Below are positions 9,001-44,548 of a DNA stretch of 44,548 bases, in pieces; within the stretch, counting starts at the first letter, position 1, and every line of letters begins with the position of its first letter. The notes beneath the pieces are model-generated. The model was not told the DNA's origin. It worked only from the letters and a program-made list of their open reading frames with translations, and did not search any database. The DNA comes from Candidatus Woesearchaeota archaeon. Lineage in GTDB: Archaea; Nanobdellota; Nanobdellia; UBA10117; JABICX01. Location: NCBI GenBank assembly GCA_964528765.1, contig CAZGVA010000001.1, forward strand, positions 1-44,548. The letters run 5' to 3'. The position numbers were made by a program, and so were the translations under genes.

Positions 9001-12000
9001 TGGATATAATAACATAACTCTTTCGCCAGTAGCGGTATTGTTTATAATATCATTATTATTACTTGTAGCTAACTTAATTGCCCAATGATGATCAACATAA
9101 ACAGTATTATTATATATTGATCCATTGTCTGCTGTATCATATAAAATTCCATAATCCTTACCCGTTCCATTCAATGAAACATTACAATTCTGCACTGTAA
9201 CACCCGACGCATTAACATATATTCCATAACTTTCATTTCCTTGGATTGTGTATCCTGCGCAATCAAATACGACATCTGCTGTTGTGATATTGATTATATA
9301 ATCAACCGTACAATCCATTATGTCTTCTTCTAAATCGGTTGATTCAGTAATTTCAGTATTACATAAGCTAAATTCTTCAAATGACCACATTCCCTCAGGC
9401 ACATTATTACCATAATCAATTCCACCCATAACTGTAATTATATCTTCTCCAGTGTTATTTCCATAGCTGACGTTTGCGTAAGTAAAGTTCTCAGCCATTG
9501 CTGAAGAATTGATCATCCAAGATACGCCAGTTCCAGTTACATGAGCATAATCGGATTCATTTCCAACGATATTTACCTCACCCGTAAATCCACTTGTATC
9601 ACTAAATCCCCTTATATGTGTGAAGTTAAGCATCGATTCCGGTCCTAAATTAAATACTCCCGTGCCTGAGATTTCACTTGTTACAGTTAAATCATATGTA
9701 TTTGAATAAAATGTATCGCTACTTCCAAGACTTAATGTTTCCGTAATAATATCGCCACTTGCGTAAGATGTATCGTTTTGAACTCTTAATAATTGATAGG
9801 TTGATCCAGTAATATTTACACCATTATAGTAATCTCCGTAGTAGATATTTCCGAAAGTTGATCCACCATCAATTGGAGCTTCTTCAAAGAAATTGAATCC
9901 CTCATTTATAGAGTCAACTAAACTTCCAGTATCTGTTTGAAGTGTTCCGGTAAGATTAATTCTACCCCAAGTAGTTCCAATAACATCTAAGGTTGTTGTC
10001 TTTCCGGGTTGAGCTGCAGATAAATTATAAAACTGTAACGTATTATCTACTGCAAAATATATGGTTCCATCGCCAGTCATGTTTACAGTAGATGTTTCTG
10101 ATGTGAATGTTCCTGCGCCTGCCCAGACTGTATCGGCTGTTGCTGTTCCATCATTACTTCCAATTGCGTCTGCTACATCTGTTCCAGTTCCTTCATCAAA
10201 TTGCCAGCAAGAAACTAGTTCGGACGGGTTGCTCATTGAGGTACATGGTTCAAACATATTAGCTCGGATTTCCGATTCTACTAAAGTTGTGTTATATATG
10301 GAAACTCTTCCGATTTGAGAGATTAAATTAAGCCCGATTCTAAAATCAACTGCTGCGCCATTATTTCCTGCTAAAGCAGTTTCATTTCCATCTAGCTTTC
10401 CATCAACATAAATTTGCTGATCATTGTTTTCCTCAAATACCCAAACAATATGGTGCCATTTTCCATCAGATACATTTGTTGTTCCCGTAACATTACTACT
10501 TGTTCCTGAAATAATCTTACCCATAGCAGTGCTATCAACAATATGTAATCCATATCCGTAGTTGCTTTTCCAAACAATATCTCCTGTGGTGTCTAATGTT
10601 TTAACCCACGCATCTATTGTTATATCATCACCTAACAGTAAGGTATCGGGAGTTCCCATATTTACATAAGGTCCATCCAAATCCAAAGCGCTCTTTCCAA
10701 TCAATCCGCCTGAAGATTGCCAGTTTTCTGAAACAGAAATTGTTGACTCACCTGCAGTAATCATTCCGTCTGTTGCAATTGTTAAATTGCTTACATATAT
10801 TGACTGATCCGAACCAGTATGCAAACGTCTAACACCAATAATCAGATTATGCACATCATCCAATGTTGAAGTTAATGTATATATATTCGCACCGCCACCA
10901 TTCAATAAAACATTATCAAATTCTCCAGTTCCAGCCGAATTTATATCAAGTGACGGATTACCCGCTGAAATAAGAATAAGACTTGCATTAGCTAAATGGG
11001 ACGTCGCATCCAAATCAATTGTATTATTAACAAACACTAAGGCATTTTGTGCATCAAAAGTTCCATCACTATTAAGTGTTCCACCGAACTCAGCTCGCTG
11101 TCCATTCAATTCTAATGTATCTCCACTTGTAACTGTAAATCCGTCGAACTCACAATCTCCGTCTAATCTTACTAATGTAGTATCTCCACCAGTCTCTAAG
11201 GCTGTTTGATAATCTATCCACTTAAACGCAATAGTTCCAACAGTAGTTGTAAGTCCGCCAGTGGTAGATATTATTCCGGGTTCGATTTGTGATTCTCCAT
11301 AGATTCTAAATTCATTTTCTCCTGTCCAAAATTCACTTGTACCATTTACTTCTGCGCCTGCTTTCAAAGTAAGTGTATTTTCATTAACCCTATTAACTAA
11401 TCCATCATTCAAAGTAAGAGCGTTCTCAATAGTTACGCCTTCATATATCCAATATGAACCAGAAGATATTGGTTGCATAATTACATCATAAAATATTGCA
11501 TCGTTAGCATATATTTTTGCTGTAGCAGTAGCACCATCAAATAAAACTGTTCCATTGTTATGTGTAAAAGTTCCATCATTATCAAAAGCAATTCCTGAAT
11601 TTGTAATTATTGTTGTTCCGTTTGTAGCGTTGTAAACTCCACCAGAGTTGATGGTTAGTGAACCAAAGCTTATACTGACGTAGTCTTGTACGCCCGAACC
11701 TCCACCATACATTGCGCCATCATAAATTACAACATTTCCAGCAACACTCAGTAATTTCCCTCCGGTGCTAGAACCTACGTCTCCAGATAATAAATGCAAG
11801 TCTCCATCCAAACCGGCACCATTTACAATCCTGAAGTAATTTCCGTCACCTATACTAATGTTTAAATTATTGTATCCCGTTCCTGCTGTTGCTAAATCTG
11901 CTTCAATAGTTGAGTCTTGAGCCGAAATAATTACGGTTCCACCGTTTCCATAATAAGTTCCATCATCATTAATTGCATAACTACCCCATTCACCCGTTAC

Positions 12001-27502: not shown

Positions 27503-28183
27503 CTAAATTAACTCCTCTGCATTAATTAATGTTCGTGGCCAGGAATCTTCAACAAGTCTTGGACAAGCAGTATTTATCCAAACATCAATGTCTTGAAAAT
27601 TTAGCATGTTTTCTGCAGTGATTATATCTGAAATGAATGTATATGTGTTTGAAAATCTCTTTTGTACTTTTTTAGCTAAGTTTGGCTTGTATTGACCTGG
27701 CTTTGTTGACAGAATAATTCCTACTTTATTAGCCTGTTTTAATTTATCCACTCTTGCTGCTTGTTTAGCAAGATATTTCCTATTGTCTTGTTCAGTAAAC
27801 ACTTTCATATGCATAGAAAATGGATTAATTTTTATCACCGGTTTACTTGTTTCAATAGTAATCTCAATTGGATGAAACTCGCCAGTACCAATATATAGAA
27901 AAGCATCAACTTTCATGGATTTTGATGCAGTTGCATCACATCCAAGTATTTGACCTGCATACGTAGTACAAGGTCCTTGACAATCTTTCGTTTTCTTTGA
28001 TTTACCAATTAAAACTTTCAAACCTTGTGATTCAAGATATTTTTTAGCTTTATTTAATTGTCCAATATGTTGGACTGTTGTAAATAATCCAATTATTTGA
28101 TATTTCTGAATTTGTTTAAGATTTTTTCTAATTGATTTAACAATATCTTGATCTGACCTTGCTTCAATGAACATAGTTTGCAT
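27503..28183 (-). CDS. dph2: 2-(3-amino-3-carboxypropyl)histidine synthase (diphthamide synthesis Dph2), C-terminal fragment (domains 2-3), 226 aa
   Basis: TTVQHIGQLNKAKKYLESQGLKV...AGQILGCDA...FLYIGTGEFHP...INPF...VGIILSTKPGQ...IDVWINTACPRLVED match archaeal Dph2 from just after its first domain. Own ATG, and a TTTTAAATATA box about 22-32 nt upstream. Confidence 0.8.
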   Translation of the reverse strand: MQTMFIEARSDQDIVKSIRKNLKQIQKYQIIGLFTTVQHIGQLNKAKKYLESQGLKVLIGKSKKTKDCQGPCTTYAGQILGCDATASKSMKVDAFLYIGTGEFHPIEITIETSKPVIKINPFSMHMKVFTEQDNRKYLAKQAARVDKLKQANKVGIILSTKPGQYKPNLAKKVQKRFSNTYTFISDIITAENMLNFQDIDVWINTACPRLVEDSWPRTLINAEELI

Positions 28184-29646: not shown

Positions 29647-29895
29647 TTAAATTTTAGAATGACCAAAATTAATTACTAAATCAAATTTTAAATTAGATAA
29701 CTGGGAGGGAATATCGCATGCCCCAAAATTACTTCCAAACCAAACCTGAACATCGGCATTAGTTTTTTTCTTTAAGATATCAACAATTTTAGTTGCTTTT
29801 GGTTTTAAACCATCTGGTAATTGAATACAAACTTTCTTTGCATTAGATTTCTTAATTGCATTTACAATTTTATTAAGTTCAAAATCAACTTCCAT
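29647..29895 (-). CDS. dph2: diphthamide synthesis Dph2, N-terminal fragment (domain 1), 82 aa
   Basis: KKVCIQLPDGLKPKATKIVDILKKKTNADVQVWFGSNFGACDIP...FDLVINFGHS is the Dph2 N-terminal signature (..alQfPdGL....yGACd....d.l.H.GHs). It stops two codons after GHS. Confidence 0.8.
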   Translation of the reverse strand: MEVDFELNKIVNAIKKSNAKKVCIQLPDGLKPKATKIVDILKKKTNADVQVWFGSNFGACDIPSQLSNLKFDLVINFGHSKI

Positions 29896-32738: not shown

Positions 32739-35138
32739 ATGACAAATAGGTACTACTCACTAAGAGAATTTAGTACAATTGCAAAGCTAGCAGAGCTTTC
32801 AAAAAAAGCGGGTTTTGATTTTATTTTCAATTTTAATTTAGGTAAATTTGAGTGCAAACAAATTCAGATTAATAAAACTCAATCAAACTTAGTTAATGTT
32901 GATGCTGAAGAATTTACTGACCAAGTTAGTTTAATGAGAGATTTTGCATTGACTAATGACGTTCCATTTAATATTAGATATTTTGCAGGTCAAAATGAAG
33001 CTAATCCTACTTTTTCACAGTTCTTTGATAGTTCTTTTACCACTAAAACACCTGAACAAGCAAATCCGGGGCGTATGAGAAAATTTATTGAAAAATTAAA
33101 ATCACCTACTGCCCTAAAAGCATATAGCCTAGGTGCAGTTGGGCTTATGGTAATAAGTCCGATGCTAAGCCCGATATTTGCTTTAGTTAAAGATTATTTT
33201 TCAAATGATTCTGATAAAGTGATTGATACTAAAACAAGTCATGAAACTTTGGAGATTAATGATTATATTGATATAAATGCAGAAGGCAATCGTCAGATTA
33301 CAGATAATACCTCGACCAATTTAGTTGAAATGCTTGATTCAACTCCCGGAAGATTATTTGATCATATGATTGAAAAAGATGGTTATCTCTATATATCCGA
33401 TAGTGGCTTAAAAATATTAAACATAAGCGACCCTGCAAATATTGACATAATTGGTAATTATTCTTCAGAAAACTCAATGGAAGTAATTTTATCTGGAAAA
33501 ACAGCCTATTTATTTGACAAAGTTGATGGAGATTGGGGTATATCAAAAATTGATATAAGTGATCCAACATCACCGAATTTAGATCAAAGAAAAATAATTT
33601 CAAATGATTACCTCGGATTAGTTAGACTAAGTAACGATAAATTACTCGTAAGAAATATTTATATGAATGGCGAAAGCTTAATTTTGGATAATAATTTAAA
33701 TGAAATAAGTAGCACTACAAAAAATATCCTAAATCCGAACAATAATCAAAATAAATTATATGAAATCGAAGTTCTGAATACAACGCAAGTACGTTTGCAC
33801 ACAATAGATAGTTCGCTGAATCGAATTGCTTCATCAAATACTGTTGAAAAACCTGAAAGTTCAATATTTATTTCAGTAAATTATATTGATAATAAATTAA
33901 TATTCACTACTGGGTCAGACTATTACACAAATCAAAGCTCAACAAGTATTTTTGAAGAAAAAGATAATAAATTAAATGAAATATCGCACGTTACGGATGG
34001 TCCAATTACTCTTGCAATTAAAAATTATTTACTTACGCAATATATTGATAATGAAAAACAAGGGGTAAGCTCAAGTTTATGGTCTACTAAAGACTCGGCA
34101 AATACCTATAAAACAAAAGAAAGTTTGCTTGGAAGTATTTTAGTTGAAGCAATTTCACCTGAAAGCGATATTATTATTGGTTTCAATAATACGCATTTTA
34201 TAACATATCGTCTAAATATGCCTAAAACAATCTCACCACAAGATTATACTATAACAAAAATTGACCCAATTGAGCCATTTACACAAGGTGATTTAATTGG
34301 TGTATTCAAATATGCGTTTGACCAATCAATTCAAGTTACACCTAAAGCAATAGATAATACAGTACATGGCGTGATTAAATCTAATAAATTAACCAATCTT
34401 CAATTAAATTTAGAAACACAAAATGGACAAAGTATTCCATTTGATATTATCCCAAATGAAGATGGAACATATGTTACACGCGTTGAAGCAGGCGAAATTA
34501 ACCTTAATTTTGCAGATTTATTAACTGGTACCGTCGGTTTAGGTGAAATACTAAATTCAGCCGTACAACAATATGGTGAATTAGAATACACCTTAAGTGG
34601 ATATGATAAAGAAGGTTTTTATTATCAATTAAAAACTGGCATACATCCGATAACTATTGAAGAAAATATTCGTGATTTGCAACAAAACCTCGGAGATAGT
34701 TCATATGGCGTATTTTATTGTCCAATTTATTTGCAAATTGTTTCACCTGATGGACAAAGAATAGGCCATTTTGATGGTGAAGATGTTACAGATATGTTAA
34801 ATAGCTTTTACTCTGGAAAAGATAGTCATCCGCAATTTTTCTTTACACCCAATGAAAATATACAACTAGCCAGTATCGCGTATGATTCGGGTCAAGTAGA
34901 TGGACGAGTTTTTGCTGAAAAAAATAATAACTTTAATTCAAATTCAGTTTCGCATACCGTAACTGCTGGTCAGAAAACCTCTTACGATTTACCAAAAGCA
35001 CCTGATAACAATACAAATCAAATTAATATAATGCCAATTGCAATTGGCGCAGGTATTGTCGGCGTAGGTGCTGCAAAATTATATTCAAATCGGAAAAAGA
35101 AAGCTAGTCATAAAATTGATCATAATCGTCACAAGTAA
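32739..35138 (+). CDS. LVIVD-repeat (beta-propeller-like) surface protein, 799 aa, with an internal TM near aa 130-150 and a C-terminal TM anchor
   Basis: DGYLYISDSGLKILNISDPANIDIIGNY and AYLFDKVDGDWGISKIDISDPTSPNL match the LVIVD repeat pattern (a.vad...GL.i.DiSdP..P). TM helices: LGAVGLMVISPMLSPIFALV and IMPIAIGAGIVGVGAAKLY, followed by RKKK. Confidence 0.5.
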   Translation: MTNRYYSLREFSTIAKLAELSKKAGFDFIFNFNLGKFECKQIQINKTQSNLVNVDAEEFTDQVSLMRDFALTNDVPFNIRYFAGQNEANPTFSQFFDSSFTTKTPEQANPGRMRKFIEKLKSPTALKAYSLGAVGLMVISPMLSPIFALVKDYFSNDSDKVIDTKTSHETLEINDYIDINAEGNRQITDNTSTNLVEMLDSTPGRLFDHMIEKDGYLYISDSGLKILNISDPANIDIIGNYSSENSMEVILSGKTAYLFDKVDGDWGISKIDISDPTSPNLDQRKIISNDYLGLVRLSNDKLLVRNIYMNGESLILDNNLNEISSTTKNILNPNNNQNKLYEIEVLNTTQVRLHTIDSSLNRIASSNTVEKPESSIFISVNYIDNKLIFTTGSDYYTNQSSTSIFEEKDNKLNEISHVTDGPITLAIKNYLLTQYIDNEKQGVSSSLWSTKDSANTYKTKESLLGSILVEAISPESDIIIGFNNTHFITYRLNMPKTISPQDYTITKIDPIEPFTQGDLIGVFKYAFDQSIQVTPKAIDNTVHGVIKSNKLTNLQLNLETQNGQSIPFDIIPNEDGTYVTRVEAGEINLNFADLLTGTVGLGEILNSAVQQYGELEYTLSGYDKEGFYYQLKTGIHPITIEENIRDLQQNLGDSSYGVFYCPIYLQIVSPDGQRIGHFDGEDVTDMLNSFYSGKDSHPQFFFTPNENIQLASIAYDSGQVDGRVFAEKNNNFNSNSVSHTVTAGQKTSYDLPKAPDNNTNQINIMPIAIGAGIVGVGAAKLYSNRKKKASHKIDHNRHK

Positions 35139-35628
35139 ATTCATATGCTAAACCATCTAGTTTTATTTCTGTAACTATTTTAAACTGCTTAGAATCGCGT
35201 ATTACAGATAACTTATCTGAATCGCTAACTACTAATGTAAACGTAGCACCGTCTTTTTTAAAAGTAATTCCTGGGTATTGAATAGTTAAACCCATATTTT
35301 CTGACCGCAAATCATCAGGGGTTTCAAAATCGATTTCATTTATGTCCAACGTCTCAAACCCTGCTAAATTAGTTTCGCAACTACCTTCGAAGTCATCTAG
35401 ATAAGCGTCCATAACTTGTAAAGCTGAATATTTCATATATTTTTCTAAATAAAATCGTGCACCTTCAGCAACAGTATAACTGTTTAGTAAATGTATTTGG
35501 TCTGCCCCAATTTCAGTTGTTTCAGTTAAAGCTAAATTATTTGAGCGAATAAATACAATTGCAACGAATATTAAAATAAACATAATTCCAATATCAATCA
35601 GTGACCCTTTTTTATTCAGAGTTATCAA
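35104..35628 (-). CDS. prepilin-like (class III signal peptide) protein, 174 aa
   Basis: MITLNKKG-SLIDIGIMFILIFVAIVFI. Overlaps the upstream gene by 17 nt. Confidence 0.6.
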   Translation of the reverse strand: MITLNKKGSLIDIGIMFILIFVAIVFIRSNNLALTETTEIGADQIHLLNSYTVAEGARFYLEKYMKYSALQVMDAYLDDFEGSCETNLAGFETLDINEIDFETPDDLRSENMGLTIQYPGITFKKDGATFTLVVSDSDKLSVIRDSKQFKIVTEIKLDGLAYEFTCDDYDQFYD

Positions 35629-36070
35629 TTAAACCGACCTCCAAATTTCTCCCATCTTCTATTGTTGGTAGATATTGTGTGCAAAATGGTTTTGTATAAT
35701 CACCAATACCTGCGTACATTTCAATAATATTTTCTTGGACGATTATATTATCCTCATCTACATCTTGCGTACCATATATGCCTGCCAATATCTCATTAGC
35801 TTTGTCAATAATAATATCCTGTTCATCTGAATCAGACATTGCCAAAGCATCTGCAAAATCATATTCCGCATATCCCTCATCTAATTGAACGGGTGAACGT
35901 AACATGCTTAAAAGAGTTACATCACAACCCTGAAACCGCGTAGCACCTTCTACTAAATAATAAAATTCCAAGTTAGTATTTGGTCTCATAATCATAACAC
36001 TTATACCCATTAATCCAATAATTATAATTGAAAAAAGAAATGTTGCTAAATCAAAATTACCTTTTTTCAT
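35612..36070 (-). CDS. prepilin-like protein, 152 aa
   Basis: MKKG-NFDLATFLFSIIIIGLMGISVMI. ATGA overlap with the upstream gene. Confidence 0.6.
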   Translation of the reverse strand: MKKGNFDLATFLFSIIIIGLMGISVMIMRPNTNLEFYYLVEGATRFQGCDVTLLSMLRSPVQLDEGYAEYDFADALAMSDSDEQDIIIDKANEILAGIYGTQDVDEDNIIVQENIIEMYAGIGDYTKPFCTQYLPTIEDGRNLEVGLIDNSE

Positions 36071-36564
36071 AAAATGACCTCCAGTGTACCTGTTTTCAAT
36101 ATATTATTTTCCCAATAATTAACCACATATATTTGTGGTTCAGATTTTAGTTTTTCTGCAGTCCAACGTATTGTACTAGTTCCATCTTGTTCAGTTAAGG
36201 TTAGTTTAAACTTTGCTGAACCATCTTTAGTTAAACATGAAAGAATATTACTCTTAGTAAACTTCTCCAAGTCAATAATACCTGCATGAACAAAATTATT
36301 GTCATCTTGATATGCTAAACATTCAGGTGCAGTAATAATCCGAGTAGCTTTAATATCATACGTAAGCTCACTTAGTGAAAAGCCAGTTACAACAAAATAA
36401 TCTTGAATTAATGGGTTAATTAACATTATCACACCAAATACAAAAACACCCATAGATCCAATTAATGAAATTAATTTAACTTCCCAACCCTGACCTTTTT
36501 TACCTTTAATTAACATTTTAGAAAATATTGAACTATTTGAATAAGTTGAATGTTTCACCTCCAC
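36067..36564 (-). CDS. prepilin-like protein, 165 aa (more likely starts at internal Met, 36516)
   Basis: ..MLIKGKKGQG-WEVKLISLIGSMGVFVFGVIMLI. Confidence 0.6.
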   Translation of the reverse strand: MEVKHSTYSNSSIFSKMLIKGKKGQGWEVKLISLIGSMGVFVFGVIMLINPLIQDYFVVTGFSLSELTYDIKATRIITAPECLAYQDDNNFVHAGIIDLEKFTKSNILSCLTKDGSAKFKLTLTEQDGTSTIRWTAEKLKSEPQIYVVNYWENNILKTGTLEVIL

Positions 36565-37513
36565 AATCTACTCCAATACGAATATTTCCCGCAGATTTTC
36601 TAAATGCAATATTTTCGGGATATTCATAAGTATTCTTGCTCTTACCATATATATGACTCATAGCTTCATTTGTTGCTTTGTCTAAGGTAATGTCATCATC
36701 GCCAAGATAATACTTATTAATTCCATCAACCACCTTCCGAGTTACCTCACCCCCGATTTTTTCCGCGTTGTCAACCAATCCTGCTGCGCAAAAATCTTCA
36801 AAACCGATATAAATACAACGATTTGGATAATTATAATAGATTAACTCGGACTTAGAAAATTTTGAACTTTTTCTTTGTTCATTGATAAGTGCAATCGCTT
36901 TTTCTGAAGAGGAAAAACCCGTAATGCTCATAAGTTTATTTTGTTCTGATTTTTCTTCAAGTAAATATTTATCAGAAAAATCAAGTTGATTATGATTTCC
37001 AACAACGAAACCTAGGATAGAAAATCGATCTCTTAGTTCGTTAATAATTTTTAAACCACTAATAAATACATCGCCTACTGCGGTCCCAACTTCAACTGCG
37101 CCATTATAAATAAATGCGGGTGCTACGCTTAATAACTCTTTAAATGTTTCAATTGTTTTCTGTTCCTGTTCTTCACAAATAGAAAAACGAGATACCGTAA
37201 CCTCATCATCATCTAATATTAATGATGCAACAATATATTCTCGATTTGTTGGGTTTAAACCTTGTGAGCCATCATCAGGGCTCCAGCTTGCCCAATGCAT
37301 AAAACTTTTTTTCCAATTATCTTTTGGAAAAGTGTATTGAACATATGTTTCTTCAGGAGCGGCAGCAACGGAATCCATAGTTAATGCAATATTTGTCGCA
37401 ATGTAGCCCGGTCCATGATCTGCCAGAAGTCCGATTTTTACACCTACAATAAGCACTACTCCTAAACCGAGTAGGATTGCAATAGTTACACCGACTTCTA
37501 ATACTGATCCCAT
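36533..37513 (-). CDS. prepilin-like / N-terminally anchored protein, 326 aa
   Basis: MG-SVLEVGVTIAILLGLGVVLIVGV. The ATG overlaps the stop of the 36-aa ORF (TAATG). Confidence 0.6.
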   Translation of the reverse strand: MGSVLEVGVTIAILLGLGVVLIVGVKIGLLADHGPGYIATNIALTMDSVAAAPEETYVQYTFPKDNWKKSFMHWASWSPDDGSQGLNPTNREYIVASLILDDDEVTVSRFSICEEQEQKTIETFKELLSVAPAFIYNGAVEVGTAVGDVFISGLKIINELRDRFSILGFVVGNHNQLDFSDKYLLEEKSEQNKLMSITGFSSSEKAIALINEQRKSSKFSKSELIYYNYPNRCIYIGFEDFCAAGLVDNAEKIGGEVTRKVVDGINKYYLGDDDITLDKATNEAMSHIYGKSKNTYEYPENIAFRKSAGNIRIGVDCGGETFNLFK

Positions 37514-37623
37514 TATTTAACGAAATTTAGTAAAACTGTACCCATAATAACTAGTACAGCCATAAATAATAACAAGTAAACAATCATTATTGGAAAATTA
37601 TCTGAACTTGCTTTTTGATTCAT
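37513..37623 (-). CDS. unlisted small membrane ORF, 36 aa
   Basis: Verified translation: MNQKASSDNFPIMIVYLLLFMAVLVIMGTVLLNFVK*. The stop overlaps the ATG of the 326-aa gene by 1 nt. A promoter-like 18-mer lies 16 nt upstream. Confidence 0.5.
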   Translation of the reverse strand: MNQKASSDNFPIMIVYLLLFMAVLVIMGTVLLNFVK

Positions 37624-37639
37624 ATAATAAAGAACATAT

Positions 37640-37657
37640 ATTTAATATAAACTCTTC
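37640..37657 (-). promoter_or_regulatory. BRE/TATA-like promoter element GAAGAGTTTATATTAAAT (copy A)
   Basis: 16 nt upstream of ATG 37623. TATA-like TTTATATT starts at -28. Confidence 0.45.
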
Positions 37658-37660
37658 GGA

Positions 37661-37768
37661 CTATTTAATTTGCATAAAAATATACCAAATAAAATACCCT
37701 GTAACTATTGCAAATAATATAAAAGAAATTTCCCAAACAGGTATATCTGATACGCCACGTTTTAACAT
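37661..37768 (-). CDS. unlisted small prepilin-like ORF, 35 aa
   Basis: Verified translation: MLKRG-VSDIPVWEISFILFAIVTGYFIWYIFMQIK*. The identical promoter-like 18-mer lies 16 nt upstream. Confidence 0.5.
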   Translation of the reverse strand: MLKRGVSDIPVWEISFILFAIVTGYFIWYIFMQIK

Positions 37769-37784
37769 AATAAATATGTCTGAA

Positions 37785-37802
37785 ATTTAATATAAACTCT
37801 TC
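37785..37802 (-). promoter_or_regulatory. BRE/TATA-like promoter element GAAGAGTTTATATTAAAT (copy B, identical to A)
   Basis: 16 nt upstream of ATG 37768. Confidence 0.45.
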
Positions 37803-37878
37803 TAAAACGTATCTACTAATTAGATGGGTGTTCTCACAAAAATAGATAGGTTTTTATGCGTTTTGTTCTTAGTTTTAT

Positions 37879-39222
37879 ATGATAGATACTACACTTACAA
37901 GTCATGAAACGCAAGCACAAGAGATAATAACTACTTATAATGCGCCATTTAAATTAGTTGGAAATCAAATTAGACATTTAGGAAATACTTCTGAGTTATA
38001 TCACAATGTAACTAAACTTCAAGACATTGCATTTAATACTCGAGATGAAAAAGGTAACAAAATACAATTAGAAGATGTTATGTTTGGCAAAGCATTTCAG
38101 CAAGCCATAGCTGAAAAAGATTCTTTAGAACTACCTGAACTTTTAATGGACAGCTTAAATAATGCTGAAGAAATGATTGAAAAATACAAGCTTCCTTGGA
38201 AAATAGAAGAAGTAACTGATCCAAATAGTGCGAATTACTCAATTGGTGAGCAACTTGTACATACTGGTAAAAATGGTTGGTTATATCAAGATGCTATGGA
38301 CCTCGTAGTTTTATGTAATACTGAAGGTTTGACTTTTGATGACCGAGCATTTGAACAAACTGCTTATTTTTCAGCAATTACTGAAGATAAAGCTTGGCAT
38401 AAAAAACAAATTCTTGCCGGAAATATAACTGAAACGGGTTATAAAACAAAAAAACCCAGTTTATTATCACGACTTTTCGGTGGACTAAAAAATACCTCAA
38501 AATCACCGATAGAAGGTCATTTTAAAGCAAATTATAATCAAAATCGTTCAGTCTCAGGTATATATTATCCAATAATCCCGAAAATTATTGATTCAATTAG
38601 TGATACATTGGCAACGCGCAAAGAATTTGCAAAACATGGCGTTGTTCAAACTGAACCTACGCACCAAAAAACTAAAGCAATTCTCGGAGCAGGATTATTT
38701 GCTAGTGCAACTGCAGTAACACTTACTGCAGGCTGTATTGAAAGTAATAGCCACTCGGATGATGAATATGTAGGTGAAGAATTTCATATTTGGAAAAACG
38801 CTGATCAACAATTTTTAAGTGGAACAACAATAAGATACGATAACGAGTTAGGAAAAACTATTGAACAAAGAAATGGGGTCCAAGAAGGAGACTCAGTAAT
38901 TGTTCATGGTAGCATTAACGTACTTGCGTTTGGGAATAATCGTGATTATACAGGTGATGGTGTCAATGATTCATATACATTTACCGGTTTTGTAACTCAT
39001 CAAGATAACTGTGAAATGGGCATATATGAATTTGGAAAACAAGATCGTAATACATCTCTTTGGTGGCAAATTAAACAAACTGTTAGGAAAGTAACTAATA
39101 ATGATACGCACATTATAATTGATATCCCATCAATACACGCAAATGACGATGAACGTCCAGATTTGTGGCAATATGTAAAGATAATTCCAGAAGATAATAA
39201 AACAAAACCTGTTGAATTGTAA
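37879..39222 (+). CDS. hypothetical membrane protein, 447 aa (soluble N-terminal ~270 aa, one TM followed by a Cys, ~150-aa C-terminal domain)
   Basis: The TM AILGAGLFASATAVTLTAGC resembles a lipobox-like LTAGC. No family recognised. TTTTTATG box at about -28. Confidence 0.55.
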   Translation: MIDTTLTSHETQAQEIITTYNAPFKLVGNQIRHLGNTSELYHNVTKLQDIAFNTRDEKGNKIQLEDVMFGKAFQQAIAEKDSLELPELLMDSLNNAEEMIEKYKLPWKIEEVTDPNSANYSIGEQLVHTGKNGWLYQDAMDLVVLCNTEGLTFDDRAFEQTAYFSAITEDKAWHKKQILAGNITETGYKTKKPSLLSRLFGGLKNTSKSPIEGHFKANYNQNRSVSGIYYPIIPKIIDSISDTLATRKEFAKHGVVQTEPTHQKTKAILGAGLFASATAVTLTAGCIESNSHSDDEYVGEEFHIWKNADQQFLSGTTIRYDNELGKTIEQRNGVQEGDSVIVHGSINVLAFGNNRDYTGDGVNDSYTFTGFVTHQDNCEMGIYEFGKQDRNTSLWWQIKQTVRKVTNNDTHIIIDIPSIHANDDERPDLWQYVKIIPEDNKTKPVEL

Positions 39223-39225
39223 AAT

Positions 39226-40143
39226 TTAGTCGTATTCTACAGGCCCAAGTGGAAATTTAAAACTATCTATAGATGGAAGTTCGAAGTTATTACTCTTAAT
39301 TGGGTCACCTACATAAACATATCCGTTTGATTTAAGCATATCACTTTTATCCATATTTATTGTCAATGGTCCACTTATTGAATCGTCATCAGAAAAACTT
39401 GCACTGAATCCTTTGAATAAACTATTATCTGAAGAAAACCATCCAATATATATTGGTGGCCAATTTTGAACAACAATATCTGCTGAGTATAAATGTTCTG
39501 CAATAGTTAAGTCACGATTATAATATGAACGAGTATAAGGCACCATCTCAAAAGTATTTGCATCAAATTGTGAAGAGTCACCCATATAAAAACAGTTTAT
39601 ATTTGTATAAGGTGTTTGTGATGATTTGTAAAAACATCGTTCAATTAAATGAAAATAAGTTTTTGCTGCAGAGCGTTTTTTCCATTCCAGACTATTTTTA
39701 TTGGATTTACAATTAGTTTTATATTGACATTCATCTGCATCATTTGAAGGACATTTACTTAAACTAAATCCCGTATCTTCACCAAAATCAATAAAATCAT
39801 TACAATCAACTTTATTATATGCGTCACCTATATCAATAGATTCCATATTACAAAAAAACAAAAGCTCACTTACAATAGCAGTAGTAACGACTCCACCAAC
39901 AGTGCCACCTGTGCCCATAAGTACTGAGTCTGAAACAACACCTGAGATTTGACCACCCATATTTTCAGCAAGTTCAACATTAAATCTACATGCACTATCT
40001 AACATGGTTCCACTTGCACGAGATACAACAAAAACTAAAACTGTAAAAATCAGAACTGCTCCAACAATTCCCAAGATAAGTAAACTACTGTGAGATAATG
40101 CATCACTTTCCTCACCTTTTTTATTCATTTTTTTAAATTTCAT
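39226..40143 (-). CDS. prepilin-like protein, 305 aa, Cys-containing ectodomain
   Basis: MKFKKMNKKG-EESDALSHSSLLILGIVGAVLIFTVLVFVV. The ATG overlaps the stop of the 49-aa ORF (TAATG). Confidence 0.6.
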   Translation of the reverse strand: MKFKKMNKKGEESDALSHSSLLILGIVGAVLIFTVLVFVVSRASGTMLDSACRFNVELAENMGGQISGVVSDSVLMGTGGTVGGVVTTAIVSELLFFCNMESIDIGDAYNKVDCNDFIDFGEDTGFSLSKCPSNDADECQYKTNCKSNKNSLEWKKRSAAKTYFHLIERCFYKSSQTPYTNINCFYMGDSSQFDANTFEMVPYTRSYYNRDLTIAEHLYSADIVVQNWPPIYIGWFSSDNSLFKGFSASFSDDDSISGPLTINMDKSDMLKSNGYVYVGDPIKSNNFELPSIDSFKFPLGPVEYD

Positions 40144-40292
40144 TATTTAAGAGCAGATAAAATAAACTCATCTACAGCAAATTTACTTGAATCAGAAAAA
40201 TAAACATACAACACGTACATAATCATAAATCCTGCAATCATGAGTAATATTTTAACAATTGTTCCAGAACTCATACCTGCTTGTCCTTTCAT
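40143..40292 (-). CDS. unlisted small prepilin-like ORF, 49 aa
   Basis: Verified translation: MKGQAG-MSSGTIVKILLMIAGFMIMYVLYVYFSDSSKFAVDEFILSALK*. A promoter-like 17-mer lies 17 nt upstream. Confidence 0.55.
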   Translation of the reverse strand: MKGQAGMSSGTIVKILLMIAGFMIMYVLYVYFSDSSKFAVDEFILSALK

Positions 40293-40309
40293 ATTTTACA
40301 ACACTTAAG

Positions 40310-40326
40310 TTTGTAATAAATGTTTC
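40310..40326 (-). promoter_or_regulatory. BRE/TATA-like element GAAACATTTATTACAAA (copy C)
   Basis: 17 nt upstream of ATG 40292. TATA-like box starts at -28. Confidence 0.4.
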
Positions 40327-40345
40327 GTAATATAATATTACCCAA

Positions 40346-41152
40346 TCACCTTACTACCCAATCACATATGTTAGACTGACAATCTGACTCAAGGGTAAAG
40401 GATTCACAATTTGTATCTAATGCTCGCACACAAAATCCTTGAACACAGGAACACCATTGAAAAGCGCCCCAACTTGAGCATTGCTCATTTATACATTCAT
40501 AAATACACCCAGATTTTCTTTCGCAGGAATTTTCATTTGGTCTAAGAGGGCATAAATCAATACATTGTCCTTGTGATCCTAATGAACAATGACTTGGTTC
40601 ACCTTCGCAATTCCACCCTGATTCAATCGTACATACTCTCGAACAACCATCGTGCCGGTTTGTATTACCATCATCACACATTTCACCTACGTCAATGAAA
40701 TGATTACCACAATTAGCCTCGCAAATATAATTATAACAATATTCATCTGAAGCACAATTAGAATCTTCGCAACATTCTCCATGTTCAAGTACATGATTAC
40801 AACAAACTTTTGTATTATCTATTGAAGTTCCTGCTTCATCAATACATCCTCTATCAAATTCAATTGGGTCTGGGTAACAACATTGTTCTTCATCACACCC
40901 ACAATCTTCTATGCAGTTTTGGCAGTTTTCTTCTTTATCTATTTCACACTCACCATTTCCACAGTAAAGAAGTAACTTAGTATCTTCTATTGCATCGCCA
41001 GGGTCTGCTGTATCAATTAACTTATTTGTATCATCTTTTGTTGCATCAAAACCTTTACTAAAATACATAATAAGAGTAATAAATATAATAATTATAAGCA
41101 CACTAACTACAATAAGCTTAATTGCAGTAATATCTCCTTTCTTAGACAACAT
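40346..41152 (-). CDS. prepilin-like, extremely Cys-rich secreted protein, 268 aa (34 Cys), with a Myxococcus-type cysteine-rich repeat
   Basis: MLSKKG-DITAIKLIVVSVLIIIIFITLIMYF. CGNGECEIDKEENCQNCIEDCGCDEEQCC module (40718..40963). CGNHFIDVGEMCDDGNTNRHDGCSRVCTIESGWNCEGEPSHC (40586..40711) matches the CGNG..e.GE.CDDGN....DGCs..C pattern. Confidence 0.7.
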   Translation of the reverse strand: MLSKKGDITAIKLIVVSVLIIIIFITLIMYFSKGFDATKDDTNKLIDTADPGDAIEDTKLLLYCGNGECEIDKEENCQNCIEDCGCDEEQCCYPDPIEFDRGCIDEAGTSIDNTKVCCNHVLEHGECCEDSNCASDEYCYNYICEANCGNHFIDVGEMCDDGNTNRHDGCSRVCTIESGWNCEGEPSHCSLGSQGQCIDLCPLRPNENSCERKSGCIYECINEQCSSWGAFQWCSCVQGFCVRALDTNCESFTLESDCQSNICDWVVR

Positions 41153-41169
41153 AATTAACTAAGCAAGTT

Positions 41170-41186
41170 TTTGTAATAAACTTTTC
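41170..41186 (-). promoter_or_regulatory. BRE/TATA-like element GAAAAGTTTATTACAAA (copy D)
   Basis: 17 nt upstream of ATG 41152 and 3 nt after the preceding stop. Confidence 0.4.
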
Positions 41187-41189
41187 GGC

Positions 41190-41954
41190 TTATTTTTTAG
41201 AACAATCAATTGCAACGTCATCAAAAAATACTTCAGTTCCTTCCAAATAATTGGCATTTTCTTCTTCAGGATAAGCTGAAGTTAAAATAACACAATTTAA
41301 ATCATTAGAATCTTGCGGAACATCAAATTCCCATTGAACTTTATGCCATAAATCATCTGCAGGAATTGTTGCCATAAAATATTTATATGAATTAAATGTA
41401 CAAACAGACTTTTTAATATCATCATTAAATTCTTCGCAATTGGACTCGTCATCATTTAGATCAACTGTCCAATCATTAGATCCAATACGTGCATAATTTA
41501 TACTTGAAAAGGTATTTGATTTTATATTAGCCGACAACATACATCGTTTATACTCACGGATTTCTGCTGACCATAAATCACTTGAACAAAGAGTAATTTC
41601 GCCAAAATTAGCGTCCCCGGAGTTAGTTTCTGAGTAAATTTGTGCAGAAAAATCCCCTTTTACAAAATCAGTAGATATTCGCTCTGAACCTTCTGCAAAT
41701 ACCCAAAGTGCATCTCGTTCAAATGAAGGGTTTCTTAATAAATTACCTGATAAATATGAGGGTCTGTCTCTTAACGCAAGTATATCGTCACCAATATCCG
41801 AATCAACCGTATTAACTGTTTTCTCTGTATTCATCTTAATTTCAGTACTATAATCTTCCCATGCCATAAAAATTATTATCATAAAAATTAAAACAATCAT
41901 AGCCAATACAATTAGCTTAATTGACCAACTCATTTCCCCTTTATTAGACATCAT
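41190..41954 (-). CDS. prepilin-like protein with a CBM4_9-like / galactose-binding-like jelly-roll domain, 254 aa
   Basis: MMSNKG-EMSWSIKLIVLAMIVLIFMIIIFMAW. NLLRNPSFERDALWVF...GDFSAQIY ... LWHKVQWEFDV ... VFFDDVAIDC fits the N.gFE...W ... W ... yvDDv.l layout of CBM_4_9. Confidence 0.55.
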   Translation of the reverse strand: MMSNKGEMSWSIKLIVLAMIVLIFMIIIFMAWEDYSTEIKMNTEKTVNTVDSDIGDDILALRDRPSYLSGNLLRNPSFERDALWVFAEGSERISTDFVKGDFSAQIYSETNSGDANFGEITLCSSDLWSAEIREYKRCMLSANIKSNTFSSINYARIGSNDWTVDLNDDESNCEEFNDDIKKSVCTFNSYKYFMATIPADDLWHKVQWEFDVPQDSNDLNCVILTSAYPEEENANYLEGTEVFFDDVAIDCSKK

Positions 41955-41977
41955 AGTTATATAATAAAAAACATAAC

Positions 41978-41994
41978 TTTGTAATAAACTTTTC
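41978..41994 (-). promoter_or_regulatory. BRE/TATA-like element GAAAAGTTTATTACAAA (copy E, identical to D)
   Basis: 23 nt upstream of ATG 41954 and 5 nt after the preceding stop. Confidence 0.4.
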
Positions 41995-41999
41995 TACAT

Positions 42000-43496
42000 T
42001 TATTCAAGGTACGCCCATTTACCTAAATTACATACCCAAGAAGGGTACGTCGTTCCAGATGTTACACAATAACCATTAACCATAACACAATTATTATCTG
42101 GAATATCGATGCAAGAGTTTCCATCACTACATTTTCCCTCAATATAACATTCAACATTTGTTGAGTAACTACTTTTAGTAAAAGATAAGTAATCTTTATA
42201 TTCGGCATTCATATGACGATAAGTCCATTTATAACTTATTACGCCACCTGTATTAACTTCTTCAATATTACTAATAACGTTACTATCGCAATGTGTTGTT
42301 GAATCAGATACTGCTTTTGACCATTTTCCTGCATAGCAAAACCAATCAACATTTCCGCCTTGCTCAATACAATAACCATTAACCGTAACACAATTATTAT
42401 TTGGAATATCGATGCAAGAGTTTCCATCACTACATTTTCCAGGTTCATCTAAACATCTAATGTCATATAAATCTAAAACTGACTCGGCATAAATTAAAGA
42501 ATCTTCGCAATATTCTGCTTCGGGACTTCTTGCATACTCACAAAAGCCAATACAACACGTATTATCTACGCAAGTACTTCCAATACATACGCAATCAGAC
42601 GCATACATACATTGTTCATCTGTATAACACAGTTCACCTGAAGATTTAGATCCATCAACACATTCATGTGTAACTGTACATATTTCTCCAGTTCCACACT
42701 CCGAATCTACATCGCAATCTCCAATATTGCACCCATCTGAGGTACACATGCCCGAAGGACACTGCACAGCAGTACTTCCATAACAATATTTATCATCATT
42801 TGCATTCAAAACATAACCATCAAAATCAGATACGCAAAGAATAACATCTTCATTATAATCATCTTTCGCATAATTCAAATTAATTTTTAAATTATTTGTA
42901 TTTATACAATCGTCACATGAATTGCTTGGGTCAAAAATATCTGATGTTGTAAAAGTTATTCCTAAAGGATATACCCAATCTAAAGTATATCCGTAATTAG
43001 CTAATTCACAAGCATTACGTTCTCTACAAGTATTTGCATCGCAGATATTTGTTTCAGGATCTCCGCAATCAGAATCTACGCAACAATCTCCTGATTTCAT
43101 TTCTAAACTACAACAAATTTCAGTTTCATCTTGCGACGAAGCTTTATCATCAAAACATCCACGCTCGAACTCTGCCTCCGCAGGTGAACAGCATTGTGTT
43201 TCATCACATCCACAATCTTCTGGACAATTATAGCAATTTTCTTCTTTATCAACTTCACAATTAACATTACCGCAATGGGACATAAACAAAGTATCGCGAA
43301 GAAAATCACCGTGCTCTGAAACTATATCGATTGCAGAAGAATCACTTGTTTTTTCAGAAAAATCTTTTGTTGATTCATCTAACGGAGTAAGATAATCATC
43401 AAAAACTCCGAAAACAAATAGCAGAACAAGAATTGCCAATACAGAACCCAATATTAGTAATAGAATCATATTGGATATTGCTTTTTTGGACTGCAT
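42000..43496 (-). CDS. prepilin-like, Cys-rich secreted protein, 498 aa (50 Cys)
   Basis: MQSKKA-ISNMILLLILGSVLAILVLLFVF. CGNVNCEVDKEENCYNCPEDCGCDETQCC module (43026..43274) paralogous to the 268-aa protein. Duplicated GKCSDGNSCIDIP(N/D)NNCV(T/M)VNGYC unit. Confidence 0.7.
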   Translation of the reverse strand: MQSKKAISNMILLLILGSVLAILVLLFVFGVFDDYLTPLDESTKDFSEKTSDSSAIDIVSEHGDFLRDTLFMSHCGNVNCEVDKEENCYNCPEDCGCDETQCCSPAEAEFERGCFDDKASSQDETEICCSLEMKSGDCCVDSDCGDPETNICDANTCRERNACELANYGYTLDWVYPLGITFTTSDIFDPSNSCDDCINTNNLKINLNYAKDDYNEDVILCVSDFDGYVLNANDDKYCYGSTAVQCPSGMCTSDGCNIGDCDVDSECGTGEICTVTHECVDGSKSSGELCYTDEQCMYASDCVCIGSTCVDNTCCIGFCEYARSPEAEYCEDSLIYAESVLDLYDIRCLDEPGKCSDGNSCIDIPNNNCVTVNGYCIEQGGNVDWFCYAGKWSKAVSDSTTHCDSNVISNIEEVNTGGVISYKWTYRHMNAEYKDYLSFTKSSYSTNVECYIEGKCSDGNSCIDIPDNNCVMVNGYCVTSGTTYPSWVCNLGKWAYLE

Positions 43497-43505
43497 AATT
43501 AATAC

Positions 43506-43685
43506 CTACAGAGTAGATGTATCTGTTCCAATGCGCATTAAATTATCAAATGCATCTCGGACACCTGCACCATATTCTGTGAACATAATTAATAAAAAGA
43601 TTGCAACAACAATGATAATAACAATACCAATAATTATCCAATACCACTCAACTCCGCCTTTTTTATTAAATTTTGGTAATTCCAT
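43506..43685 (-). CDS. unlisted small prepilin-like ORF, 59 aa
   Basis: Verified translation: MELPKFNKKG-GVEWYWIIIGIVIIIVVAIFLLIMFTEYGAGVRDAFDNLMRIGTDTSTL*. 1 nt after the stop of the 106-aa gene and 9 nt before the 498-aa gene. Confidence 0.55.
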   Translation of the reverse strand: MELPKFNKKGGVEWYWIIIGIVIIIVVAIFLLIMFTEYGAGVRDAFDNLMRIGTDTSTL

Positions 43686-43686
43686 A

Positions 43687-44007
43687 TTAATTTACGCTTG
43701 GACAGCCAGTACACATTATATCACACGTAACAATATTTGCACAATCATTAGAATCAGTACAAAAATCAGATGCGCATTCATCAAACTCAACTAAATCGTT
43801 TTTATCATCTTCTGCACTTGAACACAGACGATTACATTTTAATTCAGATATTTCTGAGCCACCTACTCCGCTTGCATCTTTAATATTATCGACATCTTTT
43901 GTTGTGTCTGAAAAAGCAGGTAAGAACCAAATAATAATTGCAATCAAAACAACTGCGACAATTACAAGTGTAACAATTGTTGTAAACGCGATTTCTCCTT
44001 TTTTCAT
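43687..44007 (-). CDS. small Cys-rich prepilin-like protein, 106 aa (candidate major subunit)
   Basis: MKKG-EIAFTTIVTLVIVAVVLIAIIIWFLPAF, then KCNRLCSS...DFCTDSNDC...CDIMCTGC (8 Cys). Own TTATATATAT box at about -31 to -22. Confidence 0.65.
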   Translation of the reverse strand: MKKGEIAFTTIVTLVIVAVVLIAIIIWFLPAFSDTTKDVDNIKDASGVGGSEISELKCNRLCSSAEDDKNDLVEFDECASDFCTDSNDCANIVTCDIMCTGCPSVN

Positions 44008-44065
44008 ATTAATATAATTTGTCTGATATATATAATGGTTATGTAATTATTTTAAAATAAAATTT

Positions 44066-44079
44066 AAAAATAGAAAAAA
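44066..44079 (-). terminator. oligo-T tract (T6-C-T-A-T5 on the coding strand)
   Basis: About 32 nt downstream of the stop at 44111-44113 and ahead of the promoter of the 106-aa gene. Confidence 0.4.
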
Positions 44080-44110
44080 TTCCTGTTTTGGATTTCTTGG
44101 TTCTCAATTA

Positions 44111-44548
44111 TTAACAACTAGTTACACCAGCACAACTAACTTCTTGCACACTATCAAAACAATCCGTATCTGTGCAATAATCACTCGTAGCCCATGCTGT
44201 ACTCGCTAATGCAGTTGCAGTAACACAGAACGCATCACATTTTGCTTCAATAGCTTCTTGTGCAACGTCGGCTGAATAGTCACCATCATCACATGCATCG
44301 CCACCACTGTCTGCTACACCTACGCAAGCAACTTTGTATGTTCCTGAGTCGTAACAATCCTTATCCGTACAATAATTACTACCTGTTGCATCTATTTTTG
44401 CCTGAGCAGTATCACAATAATCGTCACACTTAATTACAGTTATTGCATCAGCAGTACCTGTATTATCACCAACATCTGTTAGACCTGAGCCTGCTTCTTG
44501 AAATGATGGCAAGAACCAAATTATAATTCCAATTAATACTACTGCAGT
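44111..44548 (-). CDS. Cys-rich prepilin-like protein, partial (N-terminus beyond window end), paralogue of the 106-aa protein
   Basis: The frame stays open from the track start (a TTG at 44512) to 44548: TAVVLIGIIIWFLPSFQEAGSG.... This shares IIIWFLP(S/A)F with the 106-aa protein. Two copies of a KCx3C...YCTDxDC unit, 12 Cys. Confidence 0.65.
   Translation of the reverse strand, partial: TAVVLIGIIIWFLPSFQEAGSGLTDVGDNTGTADAITVIKCDDYCDTAQAKIDATGSNYCTDKDCYDSGTYKVACVGVADSGGDACDDGDYSADVAQEAIEAKCDAFCVTATALASTAWATSDYCTDTDCFDSVQEVSCAGVTSC

Follow-up and report, generated by a model that had tools for sequence, protein, structure and literature searches.

A run of pilin-like genes at the edge of a Woesearchaeota contig, the probable distal part of a type IV filament operon

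An archaeal type IV filament (TFF) locus is defined by its genes for an ATPase, a platform protein, a class III peptidase and pilins (PMC4858521; bioRxiv 10.64898/2026.04.22.720090). Here, we analyzed a cluster of 14 minus-strand genes at positions 35104-44548 of contig CAZGVA010000001.1 (GenBank assembly GCA_964528765.1, Candidatus Woesearchaeota archaeon); the window referred to below is the whole stretch of 44,548 nt. A first-pass annotation of this DNA had taken the genes to encode class III (type IV pilin-like) precursors, in which small major paralogues and many minor or tip subunits build an adhesive filament, and this is still the best reading. The region is likely to be the distal, pilin-encoding part of an operon for a type IV filament, resembling those of type IV pili (T4P), in a low-GC DPANN archaeon from the group of Woesearchaeota, Pacearchaeota and Nanoarchaeota. 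That the cluster proteins are cleaved and form a filament is what we infer from their sequences and gene neighbourhood.

The multi-pilin Epd locus of Methanococcus maripaludis (archaeal TFF 'system 1') offers the closest functional analogue; it is an operon-like cluster of about 11 genes for an ATPase, a platform and many minor pilins. Besides this plan, the two have in common KG/Q-type sites (the slash marks the processing site here and below) and a class III protein with a sugar-binding domain (PMC4371748; PMC4858521; bioRxiv 10.64898/2026.04.22.720090), and a dedicated peptidase is found at the locus in some genomes. They differ in that one platform-like gene of ~700 aa stands here against two TadC genes, the peptidase of the related loci is FlaK/PibD-like (281-288 aa, 6-7 predicted transmembrane (TM) segments) against a 9-TM EppA, and position +1 varies (E, D, A, Q) where Epd has an invariant Q. 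The present locus has 17-19 candidate subunits, and it is likened to Epd by locus plan, not by pilin sequence.

In subclade 4F of Makarova et al. (2016), nanoarchaeal pilins 'could not be identified'. The loci studied here share with this subclade an N-terminal ATPase region with two CxxC motifs, coiled-coil cytoplasmic proteins beside the ATPase, and a haloarchaeal pair as the closest annotated homologues of ATPase and platform. In contrast, the candidate pilins are adjacent and numerous here. Moreover, no resemblance was seen between the coiled-coil proteins of the DPANN loci and the genes that flank this haloarchaeal pair, so that the link to subclade 4F is an unverified lead. The minor-pilin sets of bacterial type II secretion systems, competence systems and T4P (GspH-K, ComGD-GG and PilVWX-FimU) follow the same order of ATPase, platform, major pilin and minor-pilin string, and likewise keep their small minor subunits as a conserved core at the 3' end; however, no sequence or fold match was found and there is no G/FTLIE motif, the organism is archaeal, and the peptidase is FlaK-like rather than PilD-like. 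Tad/Flp pili have an ATPase family (CpaF/TadA) close to the one found here and are also likened by very small (35-65 aa) helix-only subunits, but the Flp G/XXXXEY motif is absent from this locus and many of its subunits are large and bear ectodomains.

Assembly genes beyond the contig end

The first-pass annotation had reported that no assembly machinery is encoded in the window, and a Pfam search of all large open reading frames (ORFs) bears this out to the letter. The puzzle it raised is nevertheless an effect of the contig boundary: the window is the whole contig, which breaks inside the cluster, and the machinery appears to be lacking because of this. A look-up of the 106-aa protein of the cluster retrieved a short contig, L002, that is 100% identical to window positions 43375-44548 (1174 nt) and extends past the window end. 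Positions 1-791 of L002 in turn are identical to contig L005, which was found by a metagenome scan with a 165-aa protein (identities of the two extension contigs, 100% and 99.1%); L005 diverges from L002 solely within a variable pilin gene. L002 completes the partial last gene of the window (g14, 161 aa) and adds the gene of the 165-aa protein, which has a textbook-looking leader (MNSKG/QGLSLNYIVIAIIAALILVIIVAF). Next upstream on L005 are ORFs of 65, 47 and 45 aa with an N-terminal helix, a 690-aa 9-TM protein and a 766-aa ATPase. Four small helix ORFs (165, 65, 47 and 45 aa) thus lie beyond the window, three of them with the KG motif, which is present in the 65-aa and 47-aa ORFs and absent from the 45-aa ORF. 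By projection, the 9-TM gene ends about 1.3 kb past position 44548, and the ATPase gene lies about 3.4-5.7 kb past the window end. Of the two explanations offered earlier, that of machinery elsewhere therefore holds, with a T2SSE-family ATPase and a platform-like 9-TM protein directly upstream; that of a different kind of surface array had been prompted by the contig boundary and is not supported.

The break itself can be explained by repeated pilin 5' regions and variable C-termini. An additional paralogue of 102 aa on L005 has on either side a copy of the pilin 5' region that forms a perfect 63-nt repeat (10548-10610 and 10972-11034), and a corresponding repeat of 50 nt with 78% identity is found in the window (43907-43956 and 44496-44545). 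The 63-nt repeat probably broke the assembly. The major-pilin paralogues are hypervariable: the pilins of the co-occurring contigs (161 vs 102 aa) have an almost identical N-terminus of ~30 residues and wholly different C-terminal domains, suggesting that pilins vary in a cassette-like manner.

The ATPase (L005:4970-7270) matches Pfam T2SSE with 54 bits (cutoff 24.9), and its best PDB matches are afGspE (2OAP, 4.7e-30), CpaF (6.8e-21) and FlaI (6.5e-18). It reaches about 1e-35 against the NCBIfam TadA and FlaI models, below every equivalog cutoff (121 bits for FlaI, whose cutoff is 550), and its best NCBIfam model is the TadA conjugal-transfer-associated ATPase. Its sequence has intact Walker A (GTRSAGKS), Asp (VEDTLEL), Walker B (IIGEVR) and His (GTIHG) boxes, and NCBIfam assigns the protein to the TadA/FlaI/VirB11 superfamily. 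Its closest annotated homologue is a haloarchaeal 'type II/IV secretion system ATPase subunit' (42% identity), and its closest plasmid homologues adjoin a helicase, ParA and a DUF87 protein. As for an archaellum, the Pfam-scanned ORFs of the window and L005 gave no match to archaellin, FlaH or FlaF/G. We also observed an N-terminal extension of ~290 residues with two CSSC motifs ~45 residues apart (residues ~100-155), a possible zinc-binding module; it is conserved lengthwise in relatives, in which tblastn matches span residues ~10-750.

Immediately downstream of the ATPase gene, L005:7292-9364 encodes the 690-aa 9-TM protein. The alignment of its family profile with the protein next after the haloarchaeal secretion ATPase spans 517 columns (hhalign, 99.8% probability), and a 'faint' precomputed T2SSF match exists for the orthologue in the related locus L088. 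No tblastn match to this protein was detected in plasmids. It is a probable, strongly diverged FlaJ/TadC-type platform.

Candidates for the prepilin peptidase were found in relatives. A motif scan of all related loci yielded two polytopic proteins with D..K.E and GGGD.K motifs, L038:3738-4604 and L069:20741-21598, which match FlaK (3S0X) at 2.8e-9 and 6.9e-6, respectively, with both catalytic Asp motifs aligned. The gene lies directly after the pilin run in L069 and ~5 kb upstream of the ATPase in L038, and a Peptidase_A24 gene also follows the pilin run in L090. The lineage thus has the enzyme.

Leaders, subunits and their conservation

The window has a GC content of ~33% and is archaeal, with L10e and a split Dph2 as markers (Pfam) and a PPDK-like enzyme also encoded. 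The cluster comprises 13 complete ORFs and a partial one (35-498 aa), numbered g1 to g14 from position 35104 upward. Every one has a short, mostly basic leader followed by one hydrophobic helix of TM length, which begins within residues 1-15 in all of them (hydropathy and motif scan), so that the layout claimed earlier is borne out, and the N-termini match those quoted. A [KR][G/A] pair precedes the helix in 12 of the 13 complete genes; the scan for [KR][G/A/S] flagged 11, as g1 had been scanned from an internal ATG that omits its leader, and the TTG start restores KKG. The full-length g14 taken from L002 also carries the pair. According to the class III rule (short charged leader, charged residue at -2, G/A/S at -1 and a hydrophobic (H) domain of ~20 residues after the processing site; PMC4371748), 13 of the 14 genes have a class III signal peptide, the exception being g4, which starts with MG/S and has an uncharged -2 residue. 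The acidic residue that the first-pass annotation saw after the putative cleavage site is present at +1 in g7, g9, g10, g13 and g14. Signals of the Sec type I or lipoprotein kind (for which an H-region of 7-15 residues and then an AxA site or lipobox would be expected) were not found in the cluster ORFs or in the leader logo of relatives, as the hydrophobic stretches are 19-27 residues long and no C-terminal cleavage motif follows.

Gene sizes and tight packing were also as claimed, with intergenic spacing from -17 to +53 nt. The run itself is split by a plus-strand gene that the first-pass annotation did not mention (447 aa, 37879-39222). GGAGGT ribosome-binding sites precede two internal genes, and a box resembling the B recognition element and TATA box (BRE/TATA-like; e.g. 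gaaaagtttattacaaa) lies 22-30 nt ahead of the ATG in seven genes, which suggests several leaderless transcripts. Scans of the window for tRNAs, Rfam families, sigma-70 promoters and terminators gave nothing informative.

To examine conservation, we collected 226 relatives of the ATPase among species-representative genomes (44-57% identity over the full length) and kept 80 loci. These are mostly labelled Woesearchaeota, Pacearchaeota or Nanoarchaeota, with a few evidently mislabelled metagenome-assembled genomes, and include the complete genome of AR20 (L058). The occurrence of leader and helix throughout the window cluster is far beyond chance. When the same [KR][G/A/S]-helix filter was applied to the 80 loci, almost no ORFs were flagged upstream of the ATPase and up to 10 of ~15 were flagged downstream. 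The common plan is ATPase, platform, then ~10-13 ORFs with an M-N-K-K-G leader and helix (L009, L023, L036, L038, L045, L058, L069 and others). In L088 and L089 the pilin cluster is followed by L10e, PPDK and split Dph2, the exact order of the window, so that a close relative has the locus with its two halves on a single contig. A logo of 188 ORFs aligned at the G, with N(-4) and K(-3) not used in selection, shows M at -5, N (48%) at -4, K (71%) at -3, [KR] at -2 and G (75%) or A (22%) at -1; the mature part has Q/E/A/D at +1 and E/I/L at +2 and is strongly hydrophobic from +7 to +25.

Further genes accompany the conserved plan. In many loci, two or three tandem ~190-aa 5-TM paralogues and then two divergently transcribed coiled-coil genes come before the ATPase. 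The paralogues (L005:1857-3148; L058:7242-8926; L036:7225-8902; L023:6973-8664; L014:6897-8667) share the motif G-F-(F/Y)-D-V-V-L-P-F-L-L-V-F-T, belong to no Pfam family, and may be accessory membrane parts of the system; we considered them as the missing peptidase and rejected this, as they have no conserved Asp or GxGD. The coiled-coil pair adjoins the ATPase in nearly all relatives (L005:3535-4897, minus strand; L058:8919-9897; L036:8903-9857), and the shorter protein is apparently split in L005 into ORFs of 78 and 57 aa. A 6-TM protein of 206-211 aa, without a Pfam or NCBIfam match, lies inside the pilin run of L009 (9762-10397) and L088 (5525-6145) and is not in the window cluster.

Three genes may encode the shaft. 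The partial major-pilin paralogue g14 (44111-44548, minus strand, as for all cluster genes), inside which the contig ends, has 12 Cys in its full 161 aa (MAKG/EIQFTTIALLV...) and a TATA-like box upstream that is visible in L002. The candidate major pilin g13 (43687-44007, 106 aa, MKKG/EIAFTTIV..., 8 Cys) has its own TATA-like box, and phmmer matched it to genes in L009, L071, L036 and L088. Together with the 165-aa protein, they fall into the best-conserved family, 'KKG-(A/Q)E-LS-x-NTIIIIILA', and are likely shaft pilins; the candidate shaft paralogues contain ~7.5% Cys. Next to them, the mini-pilin-like g12 (43506-43685, 59 aa, ..NKKG/GVEWYW..) is homologous to ~51-aa ORFs in the clusters of relatives (e.g. 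L036:15574-15729 and L057:6781-6936), which makes it a conserved small ORF.

Large ectodomains follow. The disulfide-rich modules noted in the first-pass annotation are real: g11 (42000-43496, 498 aa, KKA/ISN, with an internal 72-nt repeat) has 50 Cys and g9 (40346-41152, 268 aa, SKKG/DITAIK) has 34, or 10-13% Cys, and g9 matches DUF4215 (Pfam, 27.5 bits) and TIGR02232 myxo_disulf_rpt (47.5 bits). The membrane-proximal Cys modules of g9 and g11 are 50% identical. Between them, g10 (41190-41954, 254 aa, TATA-like box 41959-41994) had been described as carrying a lectin-like jelly roll, and support for this comes from its best non-self match and sole clear relative, P0024 (E 9e-15), which has five CBM_4_9 domains; its ectodomain would thus be CBM4/9-like, i.e. 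a carbohydrate-binding jelly roll. The mini-pilin-like g8 (40143-40292, 49 aa, MKG/QAG.., TATA-like box 40291-40326) overlaps by 1 nt with g7 (39226-40143, 305 aa), a pilin-like gene whose hydrophobic stretch starts from about +11 (..NKKG/EESD..).

The 447-aa gene between the 305-aa and 35-aa genes is not pilin-like and has no N-terminal helix. Beyond it are two further mini-pilin-like genes, g6 (37661-37768, 35 aa, MLKRG/VSD.., TATA-like box 37767-37802) and g5 (37513-37623, 36 aa, MNQKA/SSD.., TATA-like box 37622-37657); g5 overlaps by 1 nt with g4 (36533-37513, 326 aa, MG/SVLEV..), which has an N-terminal helix. The conserved, minor-pilin-like g3 (36067-36516, 149 aa, or 165 aa from an upstream GTG) overlaps by 4 nt with the pilin-like g2 (35612-36070, 152 aa, MKKG/NFD.., GGAGGT site upstream). 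The last operon gene, g1 (35104-35628, 174 aa, ..NKKG/SLID..), is also pilin-like, has GGAGGT 7 nt before its TTG start, and overlaps at its 3' end with a convergent 799-aa gene by 35 nt. In relatives, g3 is homologous to the third-from-last cluster gene (L058:17858-18334 and L036:17898-18371) and g1 to the last pilin-like gene (L036, L058 and L038). Word-indexed homology searches with g3 and g13 returned self matches only, and a family-profile search returned 21 hypothetical proteins. No homologues of g2, g4, g7, g10 or g11 were detected in related loci, syntenic relatives included; fast evolution of the large cluster proteins is expected for exposed subunits.

The cluster proteins are also depleted of N-x-S/T sequons, with one observed vs 22.4 expected from per-protein shuffles (0 vs 5.5 for g11, 0 vs 3.3 for g7); for a Poisson mean of 22.4, the probability of one or fewer is about 4e-9. 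Other proteins of the window behave differently: sequons are enriched in a giant ORF at its left end (221 observed vs 138.5 expected), a 1272-aa protein (29 vs 21.9) and the intervening 447-aa protein (10 vs 4.1), and the 799-aa protein has 9 vs 11.8. Across the 80 related loci, 188 pilin-like ORFs have 115 sequons vs 261 expected (0.44), and 1018 other ORFs have 1739 vs 1712 (1.02). Characterised archaeal pilins usually bear several sequons (Table 1, PMC4371748). Sequon avoidance differs from the N-glycosylation that is usual in archaeal pilins and, if confirmed, could reveal that assembly or host recognition is constrained.

Filament assembly and competing interpretations

In the proposed mechanism, the precursors would be inserted N-in/C-out via Sec, and a signal peptidase of class III would cleave after the G/A of the M-N-K-K-G leader. 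The ATPase would then, through the platform, pull the N-terminal helices from the membrane and polymerise them into a filament. Small paralogues rich in Cys (the 165-aa protein plus g14 and g13) would make up its shaft, and the minor or priming subunits would be the conserved 3' genes g3, g1 and perhaps g2, plus the helix-only proteins of 35-65 aa. Adhesins that form the tip or decorate the filament would be supplied by the large lineage-specific proteins: g10, which has a CBM4/9-like lectin domain, g9 and g11, both disulfide-rich, as well as g7 and g4. The filament would probably be used to attach to a host cell or surface.

A number of results weigh against a type IV filament. The model-based check proposed in the first-pass annotation failed as posed: none of the 14 window proteins, run as full proteins and as 60-residue N-termini, was recognized by Pfam Class_IIIsignal (PF04021), Pilin_N, archaellin or NCBIfam models at E up to 10, the output being TM-helix noise (a weak Flp_Fap match at E 0.037 is not significant). 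Among 134 relatives, Class_IIIsignal was found in one and Flp1_like in two. An N-terminal profile retrieved generic TM helices from PDB sequences, with a Geobacter pilin at E 0.6, and reached a non-significant E of 0.064 against an annotated haloarchaeal pilin. For g3, AlphaFold gave a model that was too uncertain (predicted local distance difference test score (pLDDT) 54); that of P0003, a member of the g3 family, had a pLDDT of 84 and a topology that may be called pilin-like (helix 3-35, helix 41-56 and a 4-stranded antiparallel sheet), and a Foldseek search with the P0003 model gave nothing below E 0.1 in the PDB. Two features are atypical in comparison with characterised archaeal pilins: residues +1 to +6 are polar, and in g7 and g6 the H-domain starts late. 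As regards the platform, T2SSF reached E < 0.01 in only two of 23 orthologues (best in L009, E 4.8e-5, full domain, sub-threshold), the alignment of its profile with an annotated T2SSF-family protein was colinear but weak (hhalign E 0.011), the profile had no match in the PDB, and a search for internal duplication by hhalign found none. Finally, no A24 peptidase was found in the window or L005 (~55 kb of this genome).

Since 13 of the 14 genes follow the rule-based definition, we read the failed model searches as blindness of the curated pilin models to these proteins, rather than as a refutation of the class III assignment. Given that model, fold and profile searches all failed, the pilin assignment is based on the genomic context and on the leader's conservation rather than on direct homology to known pilins.

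Other interpretations were weighed against the filament. With the same ATPase, platform and pilin-like proteins, the cluster could instead form a short, membrane-proximal pseudopilus or bindosome-like platform that presents binding proteins (CBM-type and Cys-rich) or helps to export or anchor the very large surface proteins encoded nearby. Numerous large proteins of the class III type, here up to 498 aa, are also a feature of the Sulfolobus bindosome (PMC4371748; bioRxiv 10.64898/2026.04.22.720090); surface proteins of 799, 1272 and at least 7075 aa are encoded in the window as well, and the helix-only mini-subunits are numerous. However, g13, g14 and the gene of the 165-aa protein are small, tandemly duplicated and separately promoted, as expected for a shaft, and Pfam and NCBIfam detected no ATP-binding cassette (ABC) transporter or substrate-binding-protein domains in the cluster. 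On balance, such a platform is unlikely.

Plain signal-anchored (type II) proteins, neither cleaved nor polymerised, would form a membrane-tethered array beside a secretion ATPase. The unsuccessful pilin searches in Pfam, NCBIfam and structures fit such an array, as do the lack of a peptidase in the window and L005 and H-domains of TM length, which could be simple anchors. Nevertheless, an anchor needs no M-N-K-K-G leader with G/A at -1, which occurs in about 190 otherwise unrelated proteins, nor would it account for their strict co-orientation downstream of ATPase and platform in many genomes or for the A24 peptidase gene that closes the run in L069 and L090; in a surface array there would also be little sense in helix-only proteins of 35-65 aa. 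We therefore regard the anchor array as quite improbable.

In several relatives, genes for an RPA-like protein with an oligonucleotide/oligosaccharide-binding (OB) fold and a YdjM membrane hydrolase directly follow the pilin run (L058:19552-21545; L036:19542-22256, with RadA as well; L038:20323-21868), and L048 (6320-8807) and L031 (6415-8855) carry RPA-like, YdjM and RadA genes upstream of the ATPase, after an upstream pilin run; this neighbourhood could be a DNA-handling link or coincidental conserved synteny. A DNA-exchange or uptake filament like Ups or competence pili, acquiring DNA or nucleotides for a genome-reduced symbiont, would agree with it and with the conjugal-transfer-associated TadA model and plasmid neighbours of the ATPase, but is highly improbable, because RPA and RadA are housekeeping proteins and are not adjacent in this genome or L088 (where L10e and PPDK are found), Pfam and NCBIfam detected no ComEC-like, nuclease or DNA-binding domains in the cluster, and the lectin-like and Cys-rich ectodomains favour adhesion.

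For the type IV filament, a more specific and tentative proposal is a DPANN-specific subtype with 17-19 candidate subunits per locus that current pilin models do not see, a disulfide-rich hypervariable shaft, lectin-type tips and active avoidance of sequons beside large, sequon-rich surface proteins. Such a filament might be unglycosylated, capture hosts and be central to episymbiosis, and its subunits might be the cognate pilins that Makarova et al. did not find for nanoarchaeal ATPases of the haloarchaeal-like clade. To our knowledge, little is known of the way in which DPANN archaea locate and retain their hosts, with pili as prime suspects. This locus and its relatives provide a concrete parts list that can be tested: ATPase, diverged platform-like protein, the FlaK-like peptidase of relatives, candidate shaft pilins, conserved minor pilins and variable tip proteins of the lectin-like or Cys-rich kind. 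Moreover, the pilin content of DPANN genomes is probably under-counted, because standard pilin models miss these proteins.

Neighbouring genes

Several other genes of the window are described here for completeness. A minus-strand ORF of at least 7075 codons occupies positions 1-21225 and runs off the left end. It contains Laminin_G_3, a right-handed beta-helix/NosD domain and a HINT/intein-splicing region with an embedded DUF192, and is a giant surface protein with a possible self-processing module. On the plus strand, the 447-aa protein has a mid-protein TM segment ending in a lipobox-like LTAGC and no N-terminal signal; neither homologues in related loci nor a Pfam match was found for it. 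The 799-aa LVIVD-repeat protein (32739-35138, plus strand), convergent with g1, has an internal TM segment and a C-terminal TM anchor, and is not present at the corresponding position in the syntenic L088. The gene for diphthamide synthase Dph2 is split on the minus strand into an 82-aa N-terminal part (29647-29895) and a 226-aa C-terminal part (27503-28183), between which lie a 94-aa 3-TM ORF and a 349-aa ORF without a Pfam match. The same split with two inserted ORFs recurs in L088 (15150-17527) and L089 and is thus not an assembly error.

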